A stretch of 64,000 nucleotides of DNA from the IMG/VR virus record IMGVR_UViG_3300035703_000020, positions 85,879 through 149,878 of that record. One strand, written 5' to 3'. The stretch is from a virus. Position 1 is the first letter of the stretch, and the number at the start of each line of letters is the position of its first letter. This document shows positions 3,027 to 38,023 of this stretch, in pieces. A program made the position numbers and the translations under genes. The notes under the pieces were generated by a model. That model made no database searches and had not been told where the DNA came from. It saw nothing but the letters and a program-made list of their open reading frames with translations.

Positions 3027-3195
3027 CATCCTCTGGAAGGAGTACTACGCCGCGGTCAAGGCCGGCAACGCCGACCGCGCCAAGCTGATTCTGAAGAAGC
3101 TGCACTCGGGCCCCTCCGGGACGTCCGGGTCGGTGTACATGCCCAACGGCGCGCAGGCGCCGGGTGGGTGCAAGCGATGCAGGAGGACGATCTGA
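3010..3195 (+). CDS. Hypothetical protein (C-terminal CxxC)
   Basis: 61 aa, overlaps both neighbours, TGATG-coupled to the next gene. Confidence 0.55.
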   Translation: MNNGRDILWKEYYAAVKAGNADRAKLILKKLHSGPSGTSGSVYMPNGAQAPGGCKRCRRTI

Positions 3196-3488
3196 TGGCC
3201 GACAGGAACGAGCGGATCATCGAGCAGAAGAGCAAGCTCGCCGAGAAGGTGCTGAAGGTGGCCGAGCAGGCGCTCGGCGACATCGAGGCGACCATGGGCG
3301 AGGCGCCCGTGCGCGACCTGATCAGCATCTTCAACTCCTCGATCAAGGTCCACCGCGACCTCATGAGCGACATCGTCGCCATCCAGGAGAGCGAGACGAA
3401 GGCCGAGAAGGAGCTGGCCAAGGACAAGGAGTACACCTCCAAGGTCGACGACCTGCTCAAGAAGCTGGGGCAGGGCAAGCAGGAATGA
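3195..3488 (+). CDS. Putative terminase small subunit
   Basis: Helical 97-aa protein, ATGA-coupled to terL; assignment is positional. Confidence 0.45.
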   Translation: MADRNERIIEQKSKLAEKVLKVAEQALGDIEATMGEAPVRDLISIFNSSIKVHRDLMSDIVAIQESETKAEKELAKDKEYTSKVDDLLKKLGQGKQE

Positions 3489-5173
3489 GGCCCATCATCA
3501 CGCACGCGTCGCAGCTGGAGGAGCACTCGAGCTGGCGCGTGTACAAGCGCGGGCTCCGCGAGCTGGAGCTCATGGAGGCGCCGAAGAGCGTGCTGCAGGA
3601 CTACAGGTTCCGCGCGGCGCGCTCTTGCTTTCTGGCGTTCGCGGACGTCATGCTCGACGGCAAGCTGCAGGTCGCCGACTTCCACGAGATCATCGGCTCC
3701 GCGTTCGAGGACGTCGCCCAGCTGCGCTACCAGAGGCTGATCGTCAGCTGCGCGCCGCGCTCGGGCAAGTCAATGCTCGCCCAGCTGTTCGTCGCATGGC
3801 TCCTCGGCCACGACGAGCAGACGCAGCACATCATCGCGTCGTACGGCCAGCTCCTCTCGAACAAGTTCAACCGCGGGGTCAACGGCTACCTCCGCCACAA
3901 GCACTTCCAGCGCATCTTCCCCGAGTGGAGCGGCTTCCACCCGGACTCCAAGTACGACATGCGCGGCGGCGGGTTCATCCTCGCGACGTCCGTCGGCGGG
4001 GTGCTCACAGGCTTCACGGCCGGGACGCCGCACGAGGACAGCCCCGGCGTCGGCGCGATGGTCATCGACGACCCGCTGAAGGGCTCGGACTCCCGCGCCG
4101 CGTTCGAGGAGTTAGAGGACTGGTGGGGCGAGCAGGCGTCCACCCGGCGCACGAACCGCTGGGCCCAGCTCGTCATCGGCACCCGCTTCGGCGAGAAGGA
4201 CCTCCACGGCCTCCTGATGGACGGCGACGGCCTCTGGGACCCCGACGACAACCCGAAGGGCTGGCGGTGGGTGAACATCGAGGCGCTCTGCGAGAACGAG
4301 GCGACCGACATCCTCGGCCGGAAGAACGGCGAGTCGCACTGGCCCGGTAACGGCACCTTCACCGTCGACATGCTCCTCTCGCAGAAGAGGATCATGGGCT
4401 CGGACAAGTTCTCCGCGCTCTACCAGGGCAGGCCGACGGCGCAGGAGGGCTCGATCGTCAAGGCGGGCTGGATCAGCGTGAAAAGGCCCGAGGACTGCCC
4501 GGAGTTCGACATCACCTACCTGTCGCTCGACACGGCGTTCTCCGAGAAGCAGAGCGCGGACGAAAGCGTGATCGCGGTGATGGGCTACTCGCGCAAGCAC
4601 AAGGACGACGTCTACGTCCGCGAGATCATCAGCGGGCGGTGGGGCTTCCCAGACCTGCTCGCCATGCTCGAGCAGACGCGGAAATACTATGGGGCGAAGT
4701 TCCTCACGATCGAGCAGGCGGCGTCCGGCCAGTCGCTGATCCAGATGCTCGAGCGGGAGAGCAAGATACACATCCACGGATTCAAGCCGCTGCGGTCCAA
4801 GACGATCCGCCTGCAGACGGTGTCCCCGCTGTGGGAGGCCGGGCGCGTGCACTTCGTCGAGGGCGCCTGGACGGACGACTTCATTAAGGAGCTCACGGCC
4901 TTCCCCTTCGTGCCGCACGACGACCGGACTGACGCGGTCGTTTACGGGTTGACGTACTACATGTTCCACCTCGACGGTGGAACGCACGGCGACACGCTCC
5001 AGGCGATTGTCGGCGCCAAGGGCAAGTCACCAGGCCGCGGGCAGCTCACGGGCGAGTTCACGGAGCTGCGGAGCGGCAGGAAGCGCGAGCTGCTGACGCA
5101 CGGCGAGAGGGCACTGTACTTCGGCAAAGGCGGCAAGCGGTCGGGGCTCTCGTACGACATAGGCATGGACTGA
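3485..5173 (+). CDS. terL: Terminase large subunit
   Basis: Walker A APRSGKS, Walker B MVIDDP, nuclease motifs LSLDTA, IEQAASG and FPFVPHDDRTDA. True start is ATG 3485 (MRPIITH). Confidence 0.92.
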   Translation: MRPIITHASQLEEHSSWRVYKRGLRELELMEAPKSVLQDYRFRAARSCFLAFADVMLDGKLQVADFHEIIGSAFEDVAQLRYQRLIVSCAPRSGKSMLAQLFVAWLLGHDEQTQHIIASYGQLLSNKFNRGVNGYLRHKHFQRIFPEWSGFHPDSKYDMRGGGFILATSVGGVLTGFTAGTPHEDSPGVGAMVIDDPLKGSDSRAAFEELEDWWGEQASTRRTNRWAQLVIGTRFGEKDLHGLLMDGDGLWDPDDNPKGWRWVNIEALCENEATDILGRKNGESHWPGNGTFTVDMLLSQKRIMGSDKFSALYQGRPTAQEGSIVKAGWISVKRPEDCPEFDITYLSLDTAFSEKQSADESVIAVMGYSRKHKDDVYVREIISGRWGFPDLLAMLEQTRKYYGAKFLTIEQAASGQSLIQMLERESKIHIHGFKPLRSKTIRLQTVSPLWEAGRVHFVEGAWTDDFIKELTAFPFVPHDDRTDAVVYGLTYYMFHLDGGTHGDTLQAIVGAKGKSPGRGQLTGEFTELRSGRKRELLTHGERALYFGKGGKRSGLSYDIGMD

Positions 5174-14402: not shown

Positions 14403-15134
14403 ATGTCCGGATTCGGGAGCTTCTCGCAGGAGGCCTACGAGCAGCTGCGGCAAGCATACTCTGACCAGCTCCAGCGCGCAGACGAGATCGAGGAGGCCGG
14501 CGTCCAGATCGGCCAGGACAAGCTCGGCGTCGAGACCGCGCCCGTCCGCAGCGACTGGCTCGACAAGACCGGCCTCTGGAAGTACCCCGACGGCCGCGGC
14601 GAGCGCCAGGACGTCGAGCAGCGGCAGCAGGACCTCCTGGCCGCCCTCCGCGACGAGGACGGTAACCTCCCCGACAACGATGACGACGAGCAGGACCTCG
14701 ACGCGATGTCCGACGAGGAGATCGACGCCCTGATCAGCCAGGTCCTCGACGAGATCGACGGAGACGACGACGAGGAGGAGGAGGAGCCCGGCGGCGACGA
14801 CCTCGTCTCCAGGATCCTCGAGGCCATCGGCGACGGCGGGCTGAGCGACGAGGAGATCGACGCCGCGATCGACCAGATCCTGGGCGAGGGCGACGCCGCC
14901 GAGGATGACGACGACGAGGGGGAGGAGAGCGACGAGCCGTCCGCCGACGAGATCGCGTCCAGGATCGCCGAGCTCAGGGCCGAGCTGGCCGCACTGTCCG
15001 AGGGCGGCGGGGACGAAGAAGAGGACGAGGACTACGAGCCCGAAGAAACTCAGGGCGACGAGGAGGAAACCGAACCCGACAACGACACCGACATCGAAGA
15101 CGAGGAGGTGACCTCCGATGATGAACCTAACTGA
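14403..15134 (+). CDS. Highly acidic protein, possible prohead core/scaffold
   Basis: D/E-rich with repeated SDEEIDA.I.Q.L helices; N-terminal GFGSFSQEAYE resembles the family leader. Confidence 0.6.
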   Translation: MSGFGSFSQEAYEQLRQAYSDQLQRADEIEEAGVQIGQDKLGVETAPVRSDWLDKTGLWKYPDGRGERQDVEQRQQDLLAALRDEDGNLPDNDDDEQDLDAMSDEEIDALISQVLDEIDGDDDEEEEEPGGDDLVSRILEAIGDGGLSDEEIDAAIDQILGEGDAAEDDDDEGEESDEPSADEIASRIAELRAELAALSEGGGDEEEDEDYEPEETQGDEEETEPDNDTDIEDEEVTSDDEPN

Positions 15135-15603
15135 TACGCTCGTGGGGCAGGTCATCCCCGTCGACGCGCTCGAGGCCAACAAGAAGCGCCGCGAGCGGGT
15201 CGAAGCCCTGATCCCCAAGGACCGCGACAACTACATCGTCGGCGACGACGTGATGCGCGAGATCATGGGCCGCAAGCGCGCCCGCATGGAGATGGCCCGC
15301 CAGAACCGGGTCAACTACCAGGAGGAGGCCTACGGCATCAACCACCGCGAGTGGTCCGGCGACATGCGCAAGGCGCTGTCCGAGGGCAAGATGAAGGGCG
15401 GCTTCGCCGGCCCCGACACGTCCTTCCCGATCGCGTCCCCAGGCGACGTGGCGGCGGCGTGGTCGTCCGTCGGCCGCGCCAAGGACCCCGACGCCACGAT
15501 GCGGAAGATCATCAAGATCGCGAAGGACAACGGCTGGGAGCAGGGCCTGCCTAAGTCCGTCCGGGACCGCTTGAAGGCGGGCAAGTCCGGGCTCCCCGAG
15601 TAA
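15118..15603 (+). CDS. Hypothetical protein (DUF6582-like)
   Basis: FAGPDTSFPI..DVAAA...GRA..IIKIA...G...LP pattern. Confidence 0.55.
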   Translation: MMNLTDTLVGQVIPVDALEANKKRRERVEALIPKDRDNYIVGDDVMREIMGRKRARMEMARQNRVNYQEEAYGINHREWSGDMRKALSEGKMKGGFAGPDTSFPIASPGDVAAAWSSVGRAKDPDATMRKIIKIAKDNGWEQGLPKSVRDRLKAGKSGLPE

Positions 15604-15619
15604 CACACTGGAGGCAGCC

Positions 15620-16084
15620 ATGCCAACTTTCCTCGAACCACTCTACCCGGCCCTCGCCGGCATCCTGATCGGCGTCGCCACGATGGGCGCCAAGAAGGTG
15701 CTGGAGAAGGTCAACGCGCGCAAGTACGCGCCGCTCCTGGCCAAGGTCTACGACGTCGTCGACCCGCTGTTGGACAAGTACTACACAGGCTGGGACGGCA
15801 GCACGATCGACACCGTGCTGGAGCTCGCCTTCTACTCCGTCGGCGACGGCCAGCTGAGCAAGGAGGAGGCCCAGGCCGCCGTCCAGATGGCCAAGGAGAA
15901 GTTCCTGCCGGACGTCGCCAAGTCCAAGAAGCTCGACCCCAATACGCCTGAGGGCCGCAAGTCCCTCGAGATCGCCGAGATGGTGCTCAAGATGGAGGAG
16001 GGCGTGGACAAGGACAAGCTAGTCGACCTAGCCAAAGCATCGGTACCCCTCGAGCCCGCACAGCGGCTGCTCGGGCTGTTCTGA
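15620..16084 (+). CDS. Membrane-anchored protein, possible holin-like
   Basis: One N-terminal hydrophobic helix; GGAGG RBS. Confidence 0.45.
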   Translation: MPTFLEPLYPALAGILIGVATMGAKKVLEKVNARKYAPLLAKVYDVVDPLLDKYYTGWDGSTIDTVLELAFYSVGDGQLSKEEAQAAVQMAKEKFLPDVAKSKKLDPNTPEGRKSLEIAEMVLKMEEGVDKDKLVDLAKASVPLEPAQRLLGLF

Positions 16085-16601: not shown

Positions 16602-17216
16602 ATGCCAGTCAAGAAGGGAAAGGGCTGCGTCGCCGACGTCATGCGTGAGTGGAAGGCAGGCCAGCTCCACTCCGGCGAGGACGGCAAGGTCGTCAAGGAC
16701 CAGAAGCAGGCGGTCGCCATCGCCCTGTCGATGTGCGGCGGCAGCCGCGAGAAGGCCAAGTCGTACGAGGAGTACGCCAACAGCCTGGTCGACGAGGTGA
16801 AGGACACCTACGCCGAGAAGTGCGGCTGCAAGCACAAGAAGGGCACGAAGGAGTACGGTGAGTGCAACTGCGGCTGCAAGGGCTGCAAGCGCCGCGCGAT
16901 GGCCATCGGCTACCCCACCCCGACCTTCGGCGAGGAGGAGACGATCGGCATGATCCGCACCCGCCTCAAGGTCATGCACGGCCGCCTGTCCGACATCGAG
17001 CGGGCGATCGAGATGGCGATGATGCGGGGTAGCGAGATCGAGATGGAGCCCTGGATGATCGACAAGATCACCCTGGCCGCAGACTACCTCTCGGCGGTCG
17101 CCGATAACGCCGTGTACGGCGACGGCATCGAGGTCGAGATGGAGAACGAGGGCGAGGAGGAGGAGGGCGGTTACGCGCAGTTCCGCCGCTTCGGGTACGC
17201 CGAGGGAAAGGGCTGA
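16602..17216 (+). CDS. DUF6496-like protein, Cys-rich; upstream partner of a -1 frameshift
   Basis: VMREWKAGQLHSG..KQAVAIALS; CGC/CNCGCKGC; ends G_GGA_AAG_GGC_TGA. Confidence 0.75.
   Translation: MPVKKGKGCVADVMREWKAGQLHSGEDGKVVKDQKQAVAIALSMCGGSREKAKSYEEYANSLVDEVKDTYAEKCGCKHKKGTKEYGECNCGCKGCKRRAMAIGYPTPTFGEEETIGMIRTRLKVMHGRLSDIERAIEMAMMRGSEIEMEPWMIDKITLAADYLSAVADNAVYGDGIEVEMENEGEEEEGGYAQFRRFGYAEGKG
17204..17210 (+). promoter_or_regulatory. Candidate -1 ribosomal frameshift slippery site G_GGA_AAG
   Basis: X_XXY_YYZ in the correct phase, one codon before the stop; the -1 frame continues to 17668. Confidence 0.7.
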
Positions 17217-17668
17217 AGCCGGACTACGCCAAGGGTCTCACGAAGCGGGAGCAAGCCATCGCAAAGCGCGAGGCCGAGGAGACCCAGGAGAAGGCGAAGT
17301 CCGGCAAGGGCGCCAAGAGCGTGTACGAGGACTGGAAGTCCGACAAGGCGTACCGCAACAGGAAGAAGGGCGAGATGCCCAAGTCGAAGGCCACGGAGGC
17401 CTACGAGCGGATGTACGGCAAGAAGGACGCCGAGGACATGGCCGAGGGCGGCTCCGGCAAGGCCCTGGCCGCGAAGGCGAAGGAGTCCGGGATCCCACTC
17501 GGCGTGCTCCGGCAGGTGTACGAGCGCGGCATGGCCGCGTGGCGCGGCGGCCACAGGCCGGGCGTGTCGCCGCAGCAGTGGGCGATGGGCCGCGTGAACT
17601 CTTTCATCACCGGCTCCGGCGGGGCCAGGAAGGCCGACGCGGACCTATGGAAGAAGGCCGGCAAGTAG
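17210..17668 (+). CDS. DUF5824-like domain ORF (frameshift extension)
   Basis: KAKESGIPLGVLRQVYERGMAAWRGGHRPG..QQWAMGRVNSF. Coding-like codons begin at 17213, 36 codons before the first GTG (17321). Confidence 0.7.
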   Translation, partial: GLKPDYAKGLTKREQAIAKREAEETQEKAKSGKGAKSVYEDWKSDKAYRNRKKGEMPKSKATEAYERMYGKKDAEDMAEGGSGKALAAKAKESGIPLGVLRQVYERGMAAWRGGHRPGVSPQQWAMGRVNSFITGSGGARKADADLWKKAGK

Positions 17669-17723
17669 ACGCACTGGCCACCGCCGGGGTAAAAGATAGA
17701 GCAACCACACGCCGGCGGTTGCC

Positions 17724-17888
17724 ATGCCAAAGTCGTTCCAGGAGGCCTTCAACGAGTGGAAGGCCGATGACCGGTACAAGATCGGGGACGACATAGGCTG
17801 GGAGTTCGCCGACGCGAAAGAGGCCGGTCCTACGCCGGCCGACAGTTCCTCAACGACACAGCAAGATGGCCCAGCGCATCCAGCATAA
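17724..17888 (+). CDS. Small hypothetical protein (54 aa)
   Basis: MPKSFQEAFNEWKADDRY...; 37 nt after GGGTAA; overlaps the next gene. Confidence 0.5.
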   Translation: MPKSFQEAFNEWKADDRYKIGDDIGWEFADAKEAGPTPADSSSTTQQDGPAHPA

Positions 17889-34306: not shown

Positions 34307-37300
34307 ATGGCAGACAAGGAAATCAGGCTAGTTGGGTCGTTTAAGGACGACATCACGCCGAAGCTGGCGAAGCTGTCGAAGGAGATCGACGCCGTCACAA
34401 AGAGCTTCACCAAGATGCAGGGGAAGCTCAGGCCGATCGCGCGCGACATGGGCGTCCTCGCCATGGCCTCAGAAAGGCTCGGCGACGGCCTGCGCTCGCA
34501 GCGCACCGGGTTCGAGACCAACATCCGGGCGATGCAGCAGTACCGCTCGGAGATGGGCAAGGTCGCCCGCGCCCAGCGCGCGATCCGGCCGACGACGCTC
34601 TCGGCCCCTCGCGGCGGGGGCGGCGGCACCCCGCGCGTTCGCGGCGGCGGTGGCGGAGGGACCGGCATAGGCGAGATCGCCATCGGTAGCGCCATCGGCG
34701 GCGTGGTGACCAGCGCGATCGTCGCCGGGTTCCAGACCGGCGTCCAGCTGATGACGAAGCCGTTCGAGATGTTCGGACGCGCGTTCGCCGAGAGGATCGG
34801 CGACGAGATGGAGGACATCAAGTCGGCCGGCGGGATGTTCGCGCTCGACAAGAAGTCGAAGACCCCGTTGTTCACGTCCTTCGAGGACGCGATGAAGATG
34901 CAGGAGGGGCTCAACAGGTCCCTCGCCAAGTCCGCCGCGGCGCTGCCCGGCGCGACGAGCGACTACGTGAAGGCGGCCCGCGGCCTGACCGACACGGTGA
35001 TGGGCGCGTTCACCAAGAACGAGGAGGCATTCAAGAAGTTTGCCACCGAGCTCGGTGCGCGCCAGGGCGCGACGTCCGAGGAGGCCATCACCAAGGTGCT
35101 CCAGCGGTTCACCGAGCAGACGGTGCTGCTGGGCCAGGGGCAGAAGGGCGGCATGCCCCTCACGATGCTGATGGAGCAGCTCGTCACGCGCGAGTCGGTC
35201 AACATCACGGGCATGGCAGCCCGCTACGCCCAGCTCAGGAGCAACCCGCTGCTGGCGGGCATGCTCAAGGACGCCGAGGCGGAGATCAACAAGACGACGG
35301 CGGGCACCGCCGAGCGCTTCAGGGCCGTGATGAAGGCCCTCGACGCCGCACTGCCGCAGGAGGTCGTCAACAAGATGCGCAGGTCGGTGAGCGGCCTGAT
35401 CGAGGCGACCCGCTCGGCGTTCCTCGACCCCGACACCGGCCTGTTCGGCCTGTCGCGCGAGCTGCAGATGACGGTCCCGGCCGTCAACCAGTTCGGCCAG
35501 TACGTCGACGAGAACGGCAAGGCCGTCCGCGACGCGGCGCTGGCGGCGCGCGAGTCGACGTCGCTGTTCAAGATCCTCAAGGAGACGCTCGCGAACTTCG
35601 CGGTGCCCATCCTCGAGCTGCTCAGCACGCTGCCCCAGATCTTCGACCCGTTCAAGAAGATCGCGGAGCAGTTCAAGGAGCTGCGCGAGACTTCGAACCT
35701 GTTCTACCGCAACTTCAACTCCTACACGAAGTGGTTCGAGAACCAGTCCGCCAACTTCATGAAGCAGGCGGAGAAGATCACCGACCCCAAGGCGGCCGCG
35801 GACCTCAAGCGCCGGGCCAACATGCTCAAGGAGCAGGCCGGCGGGCGCGGCGCGCTCGCGACCCTCAACAACGCGCTGGCGTCCATCGGGGCGATCGACG
35901 ACAAGCAGTTCAAGGCCAACGCCGCCAAGCTCGCCGACACCAGCAAGGCCGGGATCGAGTCCTTCGGGGCCAAGGGCATGGCGGAGATGACCAAGACCCT
36001 CCTCGTGCAGTTCGGCAACTCGAAGTACATCGCCGACCTGGCCGAGACGCTCGGCAAGGCGATGGGCGCGTTCATCGACACCGTGTTCACGATGCTCGAC
36101 GGCGCGCTGTCAGGCGTTGAGAGCAAGACCGGCAACAAGATCGTCGAGGCGTTCGGCCGCGGCTTCGCCAGCGTGATCAACAAGCGGCGCGCGGACGAGA
36201 TCGCTGAGATCATCGACAGGCTGCTGACCAAGGTCTTTGATATGGCCGCCAACATCCTGATCACGAAGGTGATCCCGGCGATCGGCGTGGCCATCATCAA
36301 GTCGATCGAGGCCGCCTGGAAGGCGGGCCCGCTCGGGAAGTTCCTGGTCATCGTTGGCGTGCTGACGACCTTCCAGCGAGCCGTGGTGGCCGCGACGGCT
36401 GCCATGAAAGCCCTGGCACTGCTGAGGGCGCTCGGCGGCGGTGGCCTCCGGGGTCTGGGCGGCGTTGCCGGCCCGGCGAGGACGGCGGCCGGAAGCAGAG
36501 CGATGGCCATCGGGGCCGGGATACGTGGATCGTTCCGCGGGTCGCTCATGGGGCGGGCCGGGACGGCGATGGCCGCGCGGGGCATGCCAGCGATGCCTGG
36601 CTTCATGGGCGGCGCGATGCAGGGCGTCCGCGGGGCGGGGGCCCGGATGACCAAATTCATGCGCAGCCCGGTGGGCGGGGGAATCGGGGCCGGCGCCCTG
36701 ACCGCCGTGTTCTCCGGGCTCGAGACCCTCTCGCAGCTTGAGGGCATCGACGCCGAGCGCTCGCAGCTCGAGAAGGAGCGCAAGGAGGCGCTGAAGCAGG
36801 GCGACTACCAGCGCGTGGCCGAGATCGGCAAGGAGCAGTCCGCGCTGGCCGACCTCAAGGGCAAGACCCAGGCCGAGGGCGTTGGCGGCATCGCCGGCTC
36901 GCTCGCGGGTGGGGCGCTGGGCGGCCTGATCGGCGGCCCCATCGGCGCCATGATCGGCGCGCAGGTGGGCAACGCCATCGGCACGAAGTTCGGCCCGGCC
37001 ATCGGCAACTGGTGGAACAGCACCGCGGCGCCCTTCCTGTCCAACCTCGGCGCCACGATCGGCAACTTCTTCACCCAGACCATCCCCGCCTGGTGGAGCG
37101 GCACCGCGTGGCCCGGGATCCAGAACGCCTTCAACCTCCTCAAGGACGGCATCGGGCTGGTCTTCAAGGTGCTGTTCTGGCCGCAGACGATGGCGCTGAA
37201 CCTGATCCGCGGCCTCGCCCAGAACATCTACACCGCGGCGCAGAACATCGTCCCGGGCATAGGGAAGTTCTTCGTCGACCTCCCGGGCAAGATCGGGTCA

Positions 37301-38023
37301 GCCATCAAGGGCATGTTCGGCTTCGGCGGCGGGTTCGCCCGCGGCGGCGTCGGCGGGTTCCCCAAGACCTCCGGGTTCGGCATGCGCTGGGGCCGGATGC
37401 ACTCCGGCAACGACTACGGGATGCCGACGGGCACGAAGCTCGGGCTCGGCGGGCCCGGCAAGGTCAAGTACGCCGGCTGGGGTGGCGGCTACGGCAACAT
37501 GGTCGACATCCAGGGCGCCGACGGCGTCCTCTACCGCTTCGCCCACCTGAGCAAGATCAACGCGCCCGTCGGCGCGGTCCTGCCCCCGGGAGCCGTGTTC
37601 GGCCTCTCCGGCAACACGGGCAACTCTACCGGCCCGCACCTGCACTTCGAGGCGCGCCCCGGCGGGGGCGCCGCGGTCAACCCCGACCGCTACGCTGGCA
37701 TGATCCGGGCCAACTTCGGCGGCACCGACCTCGGCGGCATGCTGGCGGCGGCGCAGCTCGAGGCGGGCAAGATGCCGTACGGCGCCAACCTCGCGATCGG
37801 CAACTCGGACGAGATCTTCATGAAGCCCATCCAGATGTCGTCGCTTGTGGAGAGCGCGACGCGGGCGGGCGTCAACGGGGCGGGCAACTTCGACGTGCAG
37901 AAGGTCGAGGTCACCGTCGTCGACAACACGGGCAACATAGCGCAGGTGGCCGACCAGGTCGCCGAGCAGTTCCTCACGCACATGTACAAGGCGTCCCTCA
38001 GCGTGGACGGCCGGGCGGGATAA
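34307..38023 (+). CDS. Tape-measure-like protein with C-terminal M23 peptidase
   Basis: 1238 aa, helical and Ala/Gly-rich; HSGND, AHLS, STGPHLHFE. Confidence 0.8.
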   Translation: MADKEIRLVGSFKDDITPKLAKLSKEIDAVTKSFTKMQGKLRPIARDMGVLAMASERLGDGLRSQRTGFETNIRAMQQYRSEMGKVARAQRAIRPTTLSAPRGGGGGTPRVRGGGGGGTGIGEIAIGSAIGGVVTSAIVAGFQTGVQLMTKPFEMFGRAFAERIGDEMEDIKSAGGMFALDKKSKTPLFTSFEDAMKMQEGLNRSLAKSAAALPGATSDYVKAARGLTDTVMGAFTKNEEAFKKFATELGARQGATSEEAITKVLQRFTEQTVLLGQGQKGGMPLTMLMEQLVTRESVNITGMAARYAQLRSNPLLAGMLKDAEAEINKTTAGTAERFRAVMKALDAALPQEVVNKMRRSVSGLIEATRSAFLDPDTGLFGLSRELQMTVPAVNQFGQYVDENGKAVRDAALAARESTSLFKILKETLANFAVPILELLSTLPQIFDPFKKIAEQFKELRETSNLFYRNFNSYTKWFENQSANFMKQAEKITDPKAAADLKRRANMLKEQAGGRGALATLNNALASIGAIDDKQFKANAAKLADTSKAGIESFGAKGMAEMTKTLLVQFGNSKYIADLAETLGKAMGAFIDTVFTMLDGALSGVESKTGNKIVEAFGRGFASVINKRRADEIAEIIDRLLTKVFDMAANILITKVIPAIGVAIIKSIEAAWKAGPLGKFLVIVGVLTTFQRAVVAATAAMKALALLRALGGGGLRGLGGVAGPARTAAGSRAMAIGAGIRGSFRGSLMGRAGTAMAARGMPAMPGFMGGAMQGVRGAGARMTKFMRSPVGGGIGAGALTAVFSGLETLSQLEGIDAERSQLEKERKEALKQGDYQRVAEIGKEQSALADLKGKTQAEGVGGIAGSLAGGALGGLIGGPIGAMIGAQVGNAIGTKFGPAIGNWWNSTAAPFLSNLGATIGNFFTQTIPAWWSGTAWPGIQNAFNLLKDGIGLVFKVLFWPQTMALNLIRGLAQNIYTAAQNIVPGIGKFFVDLPGKIGSAIKGMFGFGGGFARGGVGGFPKTSGFGMRWGRMHSGNDYGMPTGTKLGLGGPGKVKYAGWGGGYGNMVDIQGADGVLYRFAHLSKINAPVGAVLPPGAVFGLSGNTGNSTGPHLHFEARPGGGAAVNPDRYAGMIRANFGGTDLGGMLAAAQLEAGKMPYGANLAIGNSDEIFMKPIQMSSLVESATRAGVNGAGNFDVQKVEVTVVDNTGNIAQVADQVAEQFLTHMYKASLSVDGRAG

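Follow-up and report, generated by a model that had tools for sequence, protein, structure and literature searches.

A conserved G_GGA_AAG site and probable lambda-type -1 frameshifting in a DUF6496/DUF5824 gene of uncultured aquatic phages

A gene of an uncultured, cyanophage-like virus very probably yields two proteins by a programmed -1 frameshift of the lambda G/GT type, a short product of 204 aa and a 355-aa product in which a DUF6496 and a DUF5824 domain are joined. The gene lies in the window, by which we mean the whole stretch of DNA analysed, the last 64 kb of a 149,878-bp IMG/VR virus record (terminal repeats; 65.5% GC). In the proposed mechanism, ribosomes translating this structural-region gene from its ATG would reach the G_GGA_AAG heptamer and have tRNA-Gly paired with GGA (P site) and tRNA-Lys with AAG (A site). 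The majority would not slip and, after reading GGC, would stop at the adjacent TGA to release the 204-aa protein. A minority would move one base back, the tRNA-Gly and tRNA-Lys slipping in tandem to re-pair on GGG and AAA, and would then continue through GGG CTG AAG to the distant TAG, so that the 355-aa form would share the first 203 residues and carry a 152-residue extension with the DUF5824 domain. If the heptamer acts alone, as it does in lambda, the efficiency of the slip is probably a few per cent. The sequences show how the site is built, that relatives keep it, that a start-less stretch of the -1 frame is under coding constraint, and that single-frame orthologues contain the predicted junction; that ribosomes slip here, how often they do so and that both isoforms are needed is inferred.

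The slip site and its genomic setting

The 204-aa ORF has a DUF6496 N-terminus followed by a Cys-rich stretch, a helical hairpin and an acidic linker, and it ends ...GYAEGKG-stop (Table 1). Its last codons are GAG (17202-04) GGA AAG GGC TGA, and because the frame divides the sequence as GAG|GGA|AAG, the heptamer stands in the X_XXY_YYZ phase. The post-slip reading, GGG CTG AAG CCG GAC TAC and onward (= GLKPDYAKGLTKREQ...; GLKPDYAKGLT...), extends over 152 codons, and the predicted transframe protein is therefore residues 1-203 plus 152, or 355 aa. The -1 frame is open from 17108, immediately after a TAA at 17105, and its first ATG, GTG or TTG is a GTG at 17321, 37 codons past the junction. Both the in-phase heptamer at the end of this ORF and the -1 frame open to 17668, with no start between the TAA and 17321, had been described in the first-pass annotation, and the codons confirm them. 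The DUF6496-like and DUF5824-like parts that it had named are likewise both matched by Pfam above the curated gathering cut-off.

Table 1. Positions in the window of the features discussed
Feature	Position	Strand	Remark
TerL	3164-5173		56% identical to TerL of Synechococcus phage S-CBWM1
Zero-frame ORF, 204 aa (short product)	16602-17216	+	from ATG 16602
Second in-phase G_GGA_AAG	16616-16622	+	codons 5-7 (KGK, in MPVKKGKGC) of the same gene
DUF6496 (PF20106) match	16620-16733	+	residues 7-44 of upstream ORF; Pfam E 3.2e-7, 31 bits, cut-off 24
Slippery heptamer G_GGA_AAG	17204-17210	+	X_XXY_YYZ phase of upstream ORF
-1 frame extension, 152 codons + TAG (17666-17668)	17210-17668	+	predicted post-slip reading
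Zero-frame stop TGA	17214-17216	+	one codon (3 nt) beyond heptamer; position kept in relatives
Candidate stem GGGUCUC (17233-39) / GAGACCC (17279-85)	17233-17285	+	weak; starts 22 nt past heptamer
DUF5824 (PF19141) match	17345-17641	+	residues 46-144 of extension; Pfam E 1e-17, 64.7 bits, cut-off 25

The heptamer GGGAAAG is not over-represented in the window (3 observed vs 6.4 expected), and only one of the seven copies in the 149.9-kb genome, the one at this site, combines a long upstream ORF (203 codons), a stop three codons further and a 152-codon -1 extension. A second in-phase copy lies close to the start of the same gene, where a slip would terminate after 8 codons; the two in-phase sites have a 12-nt string, GGGAAAGGGCTG, in common. 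The upstream copy is probably incidental, because relatives use other codons there, and it could cost some yield.

Judged by its terminase, the phage has Synechococcus phage S-CBWM1 as its only close cultured relative. The INPHARED phage collection held no near relative by DNA, and its protein matches cover the 60-residue DUF5824 core only. Downstream of TerL come PhoH, a kinase-like 1012-aa ORF, several ORFs without assignment and then the DUF6496/DUF5824 gene; on its 3' side a 54-aa ORF is followed by tail-fibre-like genes at 17866, 21363 and 25159. The gene order o14403-o15118-o15620-o16105-(o16431)-gene-o17724-tail fibre was found in every related locus fetched, and the genes are therefore orthologous at one locus. 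The first-pass annotation had placed the frameshift outside the tail-chaperone context, and this is upheld: tail fibres adjoin the gene, the tape-measure-like gene (34307-38023) is 17 kb away, and Pfam and PHROGs gave no tail-chaperone family match for the gene, whose only matches there were DUF6496, DUF5824, phrog_3041 and phrog_28338. Membership of the tail-chaperone G/GT family is ruled out because both position and homology fail, the gene not lying between tail tube and tape measure. The description of it as a head-region gene found no support, the conserved synteny placing it directly upstream of the tail-fibre genes. Pfam profiles run over the genome (CheckV completeness 69%) gave no Gp23 or HK97 match, so that the head module was not located and the capsid gene is either of an unrecognised type or in the missing part.

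Several features of the surrounding block are recorded here in their own right. Neither the 161-aa ORF at 15118-15603 nor the 154-aa ORF at 15620-16084 is matched by Pfam or PHROGs, and yet no other genes of the syntenic block are so well conserved (57-96% identity for the first and mostly 72-94% for the second, in relatives of 49-67% GC); both are probably core structural proteins. The 54-aa ORF (17724-17888; MPKSFQEAF...) is kept in all relatives and overlaps the start of the tail-fibre gene at 17866 by 23 nt. An intergenic motif of promoter-like look, TTCGC...(about 16 nt)...GGTAAAATCT(A), directly follows the stop of the gene in L093, L094, L096, L100, L108, L102 and L107; the corresponding stretch of the window is 17680-17719, where GGGGTAAAAGATAG (17686-17699) sits within an inverted repeat, ACCGCCGG (17680-87) / CCGGCGGT (17712-19). 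A similar AAATCTTAAA motif stands ahead of the ATG of the gene in several relatives.

Split and fused relatives

A search with the 204-aa protein gave 73 clusters, and the class counts refer to the window's protein together with these 73. The short class consists of 30 protein clusters (90% identity; the window's included), 45-85% identical, that end in [E/Q]GK-x-stop at the same alignment column. Sixteen clusters of 255-353 aa form the fused class, in which DUF5824 is read in frame; those of full length (about 330-353 aa) run continuously from the DUF6496 N-terminus into DUF5824, and five shorter ones are without the DUF6496 N-terminus. The first-pass annotation had held that a continuous ORF in relatives would refute a frameshift. 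Such relatives do exist, but their single-frame fusions confirm that both parts belong to one protein.

A further 7 clusters have a different C-terminal module (...CWxGY...VPNCV), and the other 20 are a mixed remainder, many with a third module (...GEKGAPS...) and others ending soon past the helical hairpin. The alternative modules, of the patterns ...GLEDACWKGY..G.KKKG..VPNCV and ...LWDNIHAKRERI..GERMR.PGEKGAPS..., were seen at loci L099, L102 and L107 and in proteins P0012, P0013, P0015, P0034, P0037, P0046 and P0052, as well as P0049, P0050 and P0054-P0074. All of them follow a conserved Y-x-E-(G/A/K)-K linker, which argues for module swapping at this junction.

DNA of relatives was taken from IMG/VR, JGI/ENA metagenomes and GTDB contigs, and the comparison of split-type DNA covered six sequence types out of roughly thirty short-type clusters, namely the window, L003 (with seven near-identical copies), L104, L090, L110 and L151, which come from separate metagenome or viral-contig records. 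All six have GAG GGA AAG, one further codon (GGC or CAC) and TGA, TAA or TAG, with DUF5824 in the -1 frame; the heptamer is identical, the position of the zero-frame stop is fixed and no split type has a break in the 152 codons of the -1 ORF, across a range of 51-67% GC and with N parts 49-73% identical to that of the window. The conservation of heptamer and frame offset that the first-pass annotation had suggested looking for is thus present in 6/6 split types. Further scans of viral contigs (P0038, P0053 and an alignment of the C part) added L151 as the only new locus, and a scan of genome contigs gave one fused MAG contig. The tree of C-terminal parts is poorly resolved and compatible with a single origin of the split state, which may have arisen only once; the six sequences therefore do not stand for six independent origins. 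In L101 an in-frame TAA (2980-2982) interrupts a conserved helix, ...AADYLAAVHD*AMYGPG..., past which homology continues in the same frame; a nonsense mutation, an error of assembly or readthrough could each account for it.

GGA makes up 30/640 Gly codons (~5%) in this phage, and an E-G-K tripeptide would be encoded as GAG-GGA-AAG by chance with a probability of 0.04-0.13 in any one sequence. As an internal control we took the conserved KGK near the N-terminus of this protein, and there GGA, GGT, GGG and GGC, and AAA and AAG, vary among the same relatives. When synonymous identity was scanned over the whole transframe CDS of the six split genes, the top 7-column interval was the junction itself (E G K L P Y K), at 0.83 vs a mean of 0.53.

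Over the 36 codons from the junction to the first start, dN/dS in the -1 frame is 0.03-0.4 for divergent split pairs (dS 0.9-2.2; NG86) and 0.56-0.63 for the two closest pairs (dS about 0.25-0.3); in either of the other frames most pairs give about 1 or more (range 0.4-7.6). Judged by these ratios the stretch, which aligns residue for residue with fused orthologues, is under purifying selection in the -1 frame only. Such constraint argues that the stretch is translated in that frame, by ribosomes that could enter only from upstream. The alternative is that two separate genes are present, with translation of DUF5824 beginning internally, at GTG 17321 or at the conserved methionine codon of MPKSK (ATG 17375), and the heptamer incidental. 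The Pfam match to DUF5824 starts past GTG 17321, M56 of the extension is nearly invariant in the family and stand-alone DUF5824 proteins of 86-130 aa exist; because many genes of this phage are without an obvious SD, the sequence leaves an internal start a small share of probability. We nevertheless regard two separate genes as improbable, given that the constrained codons lie ahead of any start and that the first in-frame start shifts among relatives (24, 37 or 54 codons past the junction), and the invariant GAG GGA AAG, the fixed stop position and the peak of synonymous conservation would be left unexplained. Some independent initiation at the conserved Met (MPKSK, extension residue 56) could accompany the frameshift.

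The fused orthologue L111 reads GAG GGG AAA GGA CTG AAG CCG GGC TAC in a single frame, giving EGKGLKPGY. Its EGKGLKP is the junction predicted for the transframe product of the window, and the DNA differs essentially by one extra G. This difference, together with how common the fused forms are, would also suit a gene broken by a 1-nt deletion (GGGG to GGG) in a fused ancestor, or an assembly error, with an inactive remnant downstream. However, the same state recurs in six sequence types with different stop codons and widely differing GC, from separate records, and in 30 protein clusters; the downstream part has dN/dS well below 1 at saturated dS, and its frame is unbroken in every split type. 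The tests of selection, the positions of the first starts and the L111 junction together make an assembly error or a dead gene very unlikely.

Other routes of recoding, either transcriptional slippage or termination-reinitiation at the TGA, would be in keeping with a stop so soon after the heptamer and the brief overlap of the two frames. In bacteria, transcriptional slippage is known from A or T runs about 9 long (PMC5009743), but no long run of either is present at the site; for reinitiation, no ATG, GTG or TTG lies near the stop in any split-type locus. The conserved element is, moreover, exactly a canonical in-phase X_XXY_YYZ heptamer, and we consider these routes scarcely probable. The lambda-type -1 frameshift with products of 204 and about 355 aa, as the first-pass annotation had proposed, has comparative support from the conservation of the site, the selection on the -1 frame, the peak at the junction and the L111 orthologue.

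Slip efficiency, isoforms and the DUF5824 module

Taking as a stimulator either a stem-loop or pseudoknot 5-9 nt to the 3' side or an SD-like sequence to the 5' side, we found no candidate of either kind at the split-type junctions that was both convincing and conserved. Downstream folds of the split types had z-scores of -0.8 to -3.3 with one covarying pair only (RNAalifold and single-sequence folds), and the candidate stem in the window (Table 1) was rejected as a stimulator, its folds being weak and its distance from the heptamer too great. AAG accounts for 95% of Lys codons in this phage, and its genome encodes no tRNA-Lys or tRNA-Gly; the five tRNA genes that it does have (Asn, Thr x2, Val, Met) lie at 34.8-37.2 kb of the record. 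Reliance on a single tRNA-Lys, the condition that makes A_AAG shifty, is seen in only about half of bacteria (PMC5009743), and for this reason the efficiency of the slip could be low, namely if the host has a tRNA-Lys(CUU).

A different slippery sequence occurs among the fused relatives. Five of them (L093, L094, L096, L100 and L108) have A_AAA_AAG (xxA AAA AAG) in phase at the homologous junction, the codon before AAA AAG being TCA, GCA or GGA, and this is the sole in-phase copy in each of the five ORFs. The triplet xxA AAA AAG has an expected frequency of 0.025-0.055 per sequence, and both Lys codons are 100% identical in the five orthologues vs a mean codon identity of 0.48, with pairwise dS from 1.5 to above 2.5. 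A -1 slip at this heptamer meets a stop after 1, 4 or 6 codons, and the resulting short isoform would, from the sequence, differ little from the zero-frame product of the window. Modest hairpins lie 5-6 nt 3' of A_AAA_AAG (z -0.2 to -0.8; -2.85 in L094), and no SD-like or strong stem-loop stimulator was found in these five genes. Other fused orthologues (L111; L112, L113, L092; L103, L105, L154; L120) are without a slippery site, so that two isoforms are not universal. It is possible, in a reading that we lean slightly against, that both architectures keep two isoforms, the N part alone and the N part with DUF5824, by recoding, the slip giving the long form in split genes and a dnaX-type slip the short form in fused ones. 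If true, a viral gene would in its evolution have exchanged the isoform that depends on slipping for the other, a change also proposed for dnaX of bacteria, and what selection acts on would be the isoform ratio, in a clade of aquatic phages that is widespread and probably infects cyanobacteria. The locus would then be a natural system for studying how selection on isoform ratio shifts a gene from a frameshift-on to a frameshift-off architecture or back.

DUF5824 is a promiscuous module. A library clustered at 50% identity has it in 2070 clusters; the proteins measure 86-1392 aa, and the module is mostly at the C-terminus and sometimes repeated. A co-occurrence census of 81 long proteins returned only other DUFs and, occasionally, Zeta_toxin and cytidylyltransferase, and no function is therefore assignable to it; in the library of papers searched, none mentions either DUF5824 or DUF6496. 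The AF2 model of the 152-residue extension is confident and all-helical (pLDDT 85.5), with no analogue in the PDB (Foldseek E > 2; VIA best Z 3.8) and with BFVD matches to other DUF5824 proteins only. By this predicted fold the extension is not of the Ig-like C-terminal kind. The model of the N part is mediocre (pLDDT 72) and gave no structural match (best Z 4.9).

Comparison with known recoding systems

With this site, a family of uncultured aquatic phages gains a recoding site that is conserved and well supported. Gene callers cut the gene in two or shorten it, with about 30 clusters recorded as roughly 200-aa proteins, and the annotation of these genomes should therefore join both parts.

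The lambda G/GT site works without a strong stimulator, and no obvious strong one was found at the window's gene, which resembles lambda in having the same heptamer, a close zero-frame stop and a long -1 product that would share its N-terminus with an abundant short one. In lambda the identical G_GGA_AAG keeps the zero frame about 96% of the time and slips about 4%, with the stop of G just downstream (PMC3296357); in E. coli this heptamer is one of those described as highly shift-prone (PMC5009743). The lambda frameshift belongs to a tail assembly chaperone (Levin et al. 1993; Xu et al. 2004, as cited in PMC3296357 and PMC5009743), whereas the gene described here encodes a DUF6496/DUF5824 protein and lies directly upstream of tail fibres, not between tail tube and tape measure.

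In bacterial dnaX, which of the two products needs the slip has reversed among species (PMC5009743). The comparison with dnaX concerns the relatives and not the window, and it is with a viral and unrelated protein whose fused forms are without SD-like or strong stem-loop stimulators. The fused orthologues nonetheless carry A_AAA_AAG, the heptamer of dnaX tau/gamma, and orthologues of this phage gene, too, appear to differ in the isoform that would depend on the slip.

In the use made of a C-terminal module the gene resembles some phage structural proteins. Ig-like domains are added as a C-terminal module by frameshift and are in frame in relatives (PMC5009743; Fraser et al. 2006), and GGGAAAG is used in the capsid gene of phiEco32-like phages and of Privateer, in the latter thus outside the tail genes (PMC7881722). 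Unlike these cases and that of T7/T3 gene 10A/10B, the DUF5824 module is helical by prediction, and its carrier, known here from sequence, is not a recognisable capsid or tail protein. As in them, a promiscuous C-terminal module would be placed on a fraction of molecules by a -1 slip and is found in frame in relatives, and DUF5824, which is joined on in either the same or the -1 frame or gives way to another module, mirrors the mobility of Ig-like domains on phage structural proteins.
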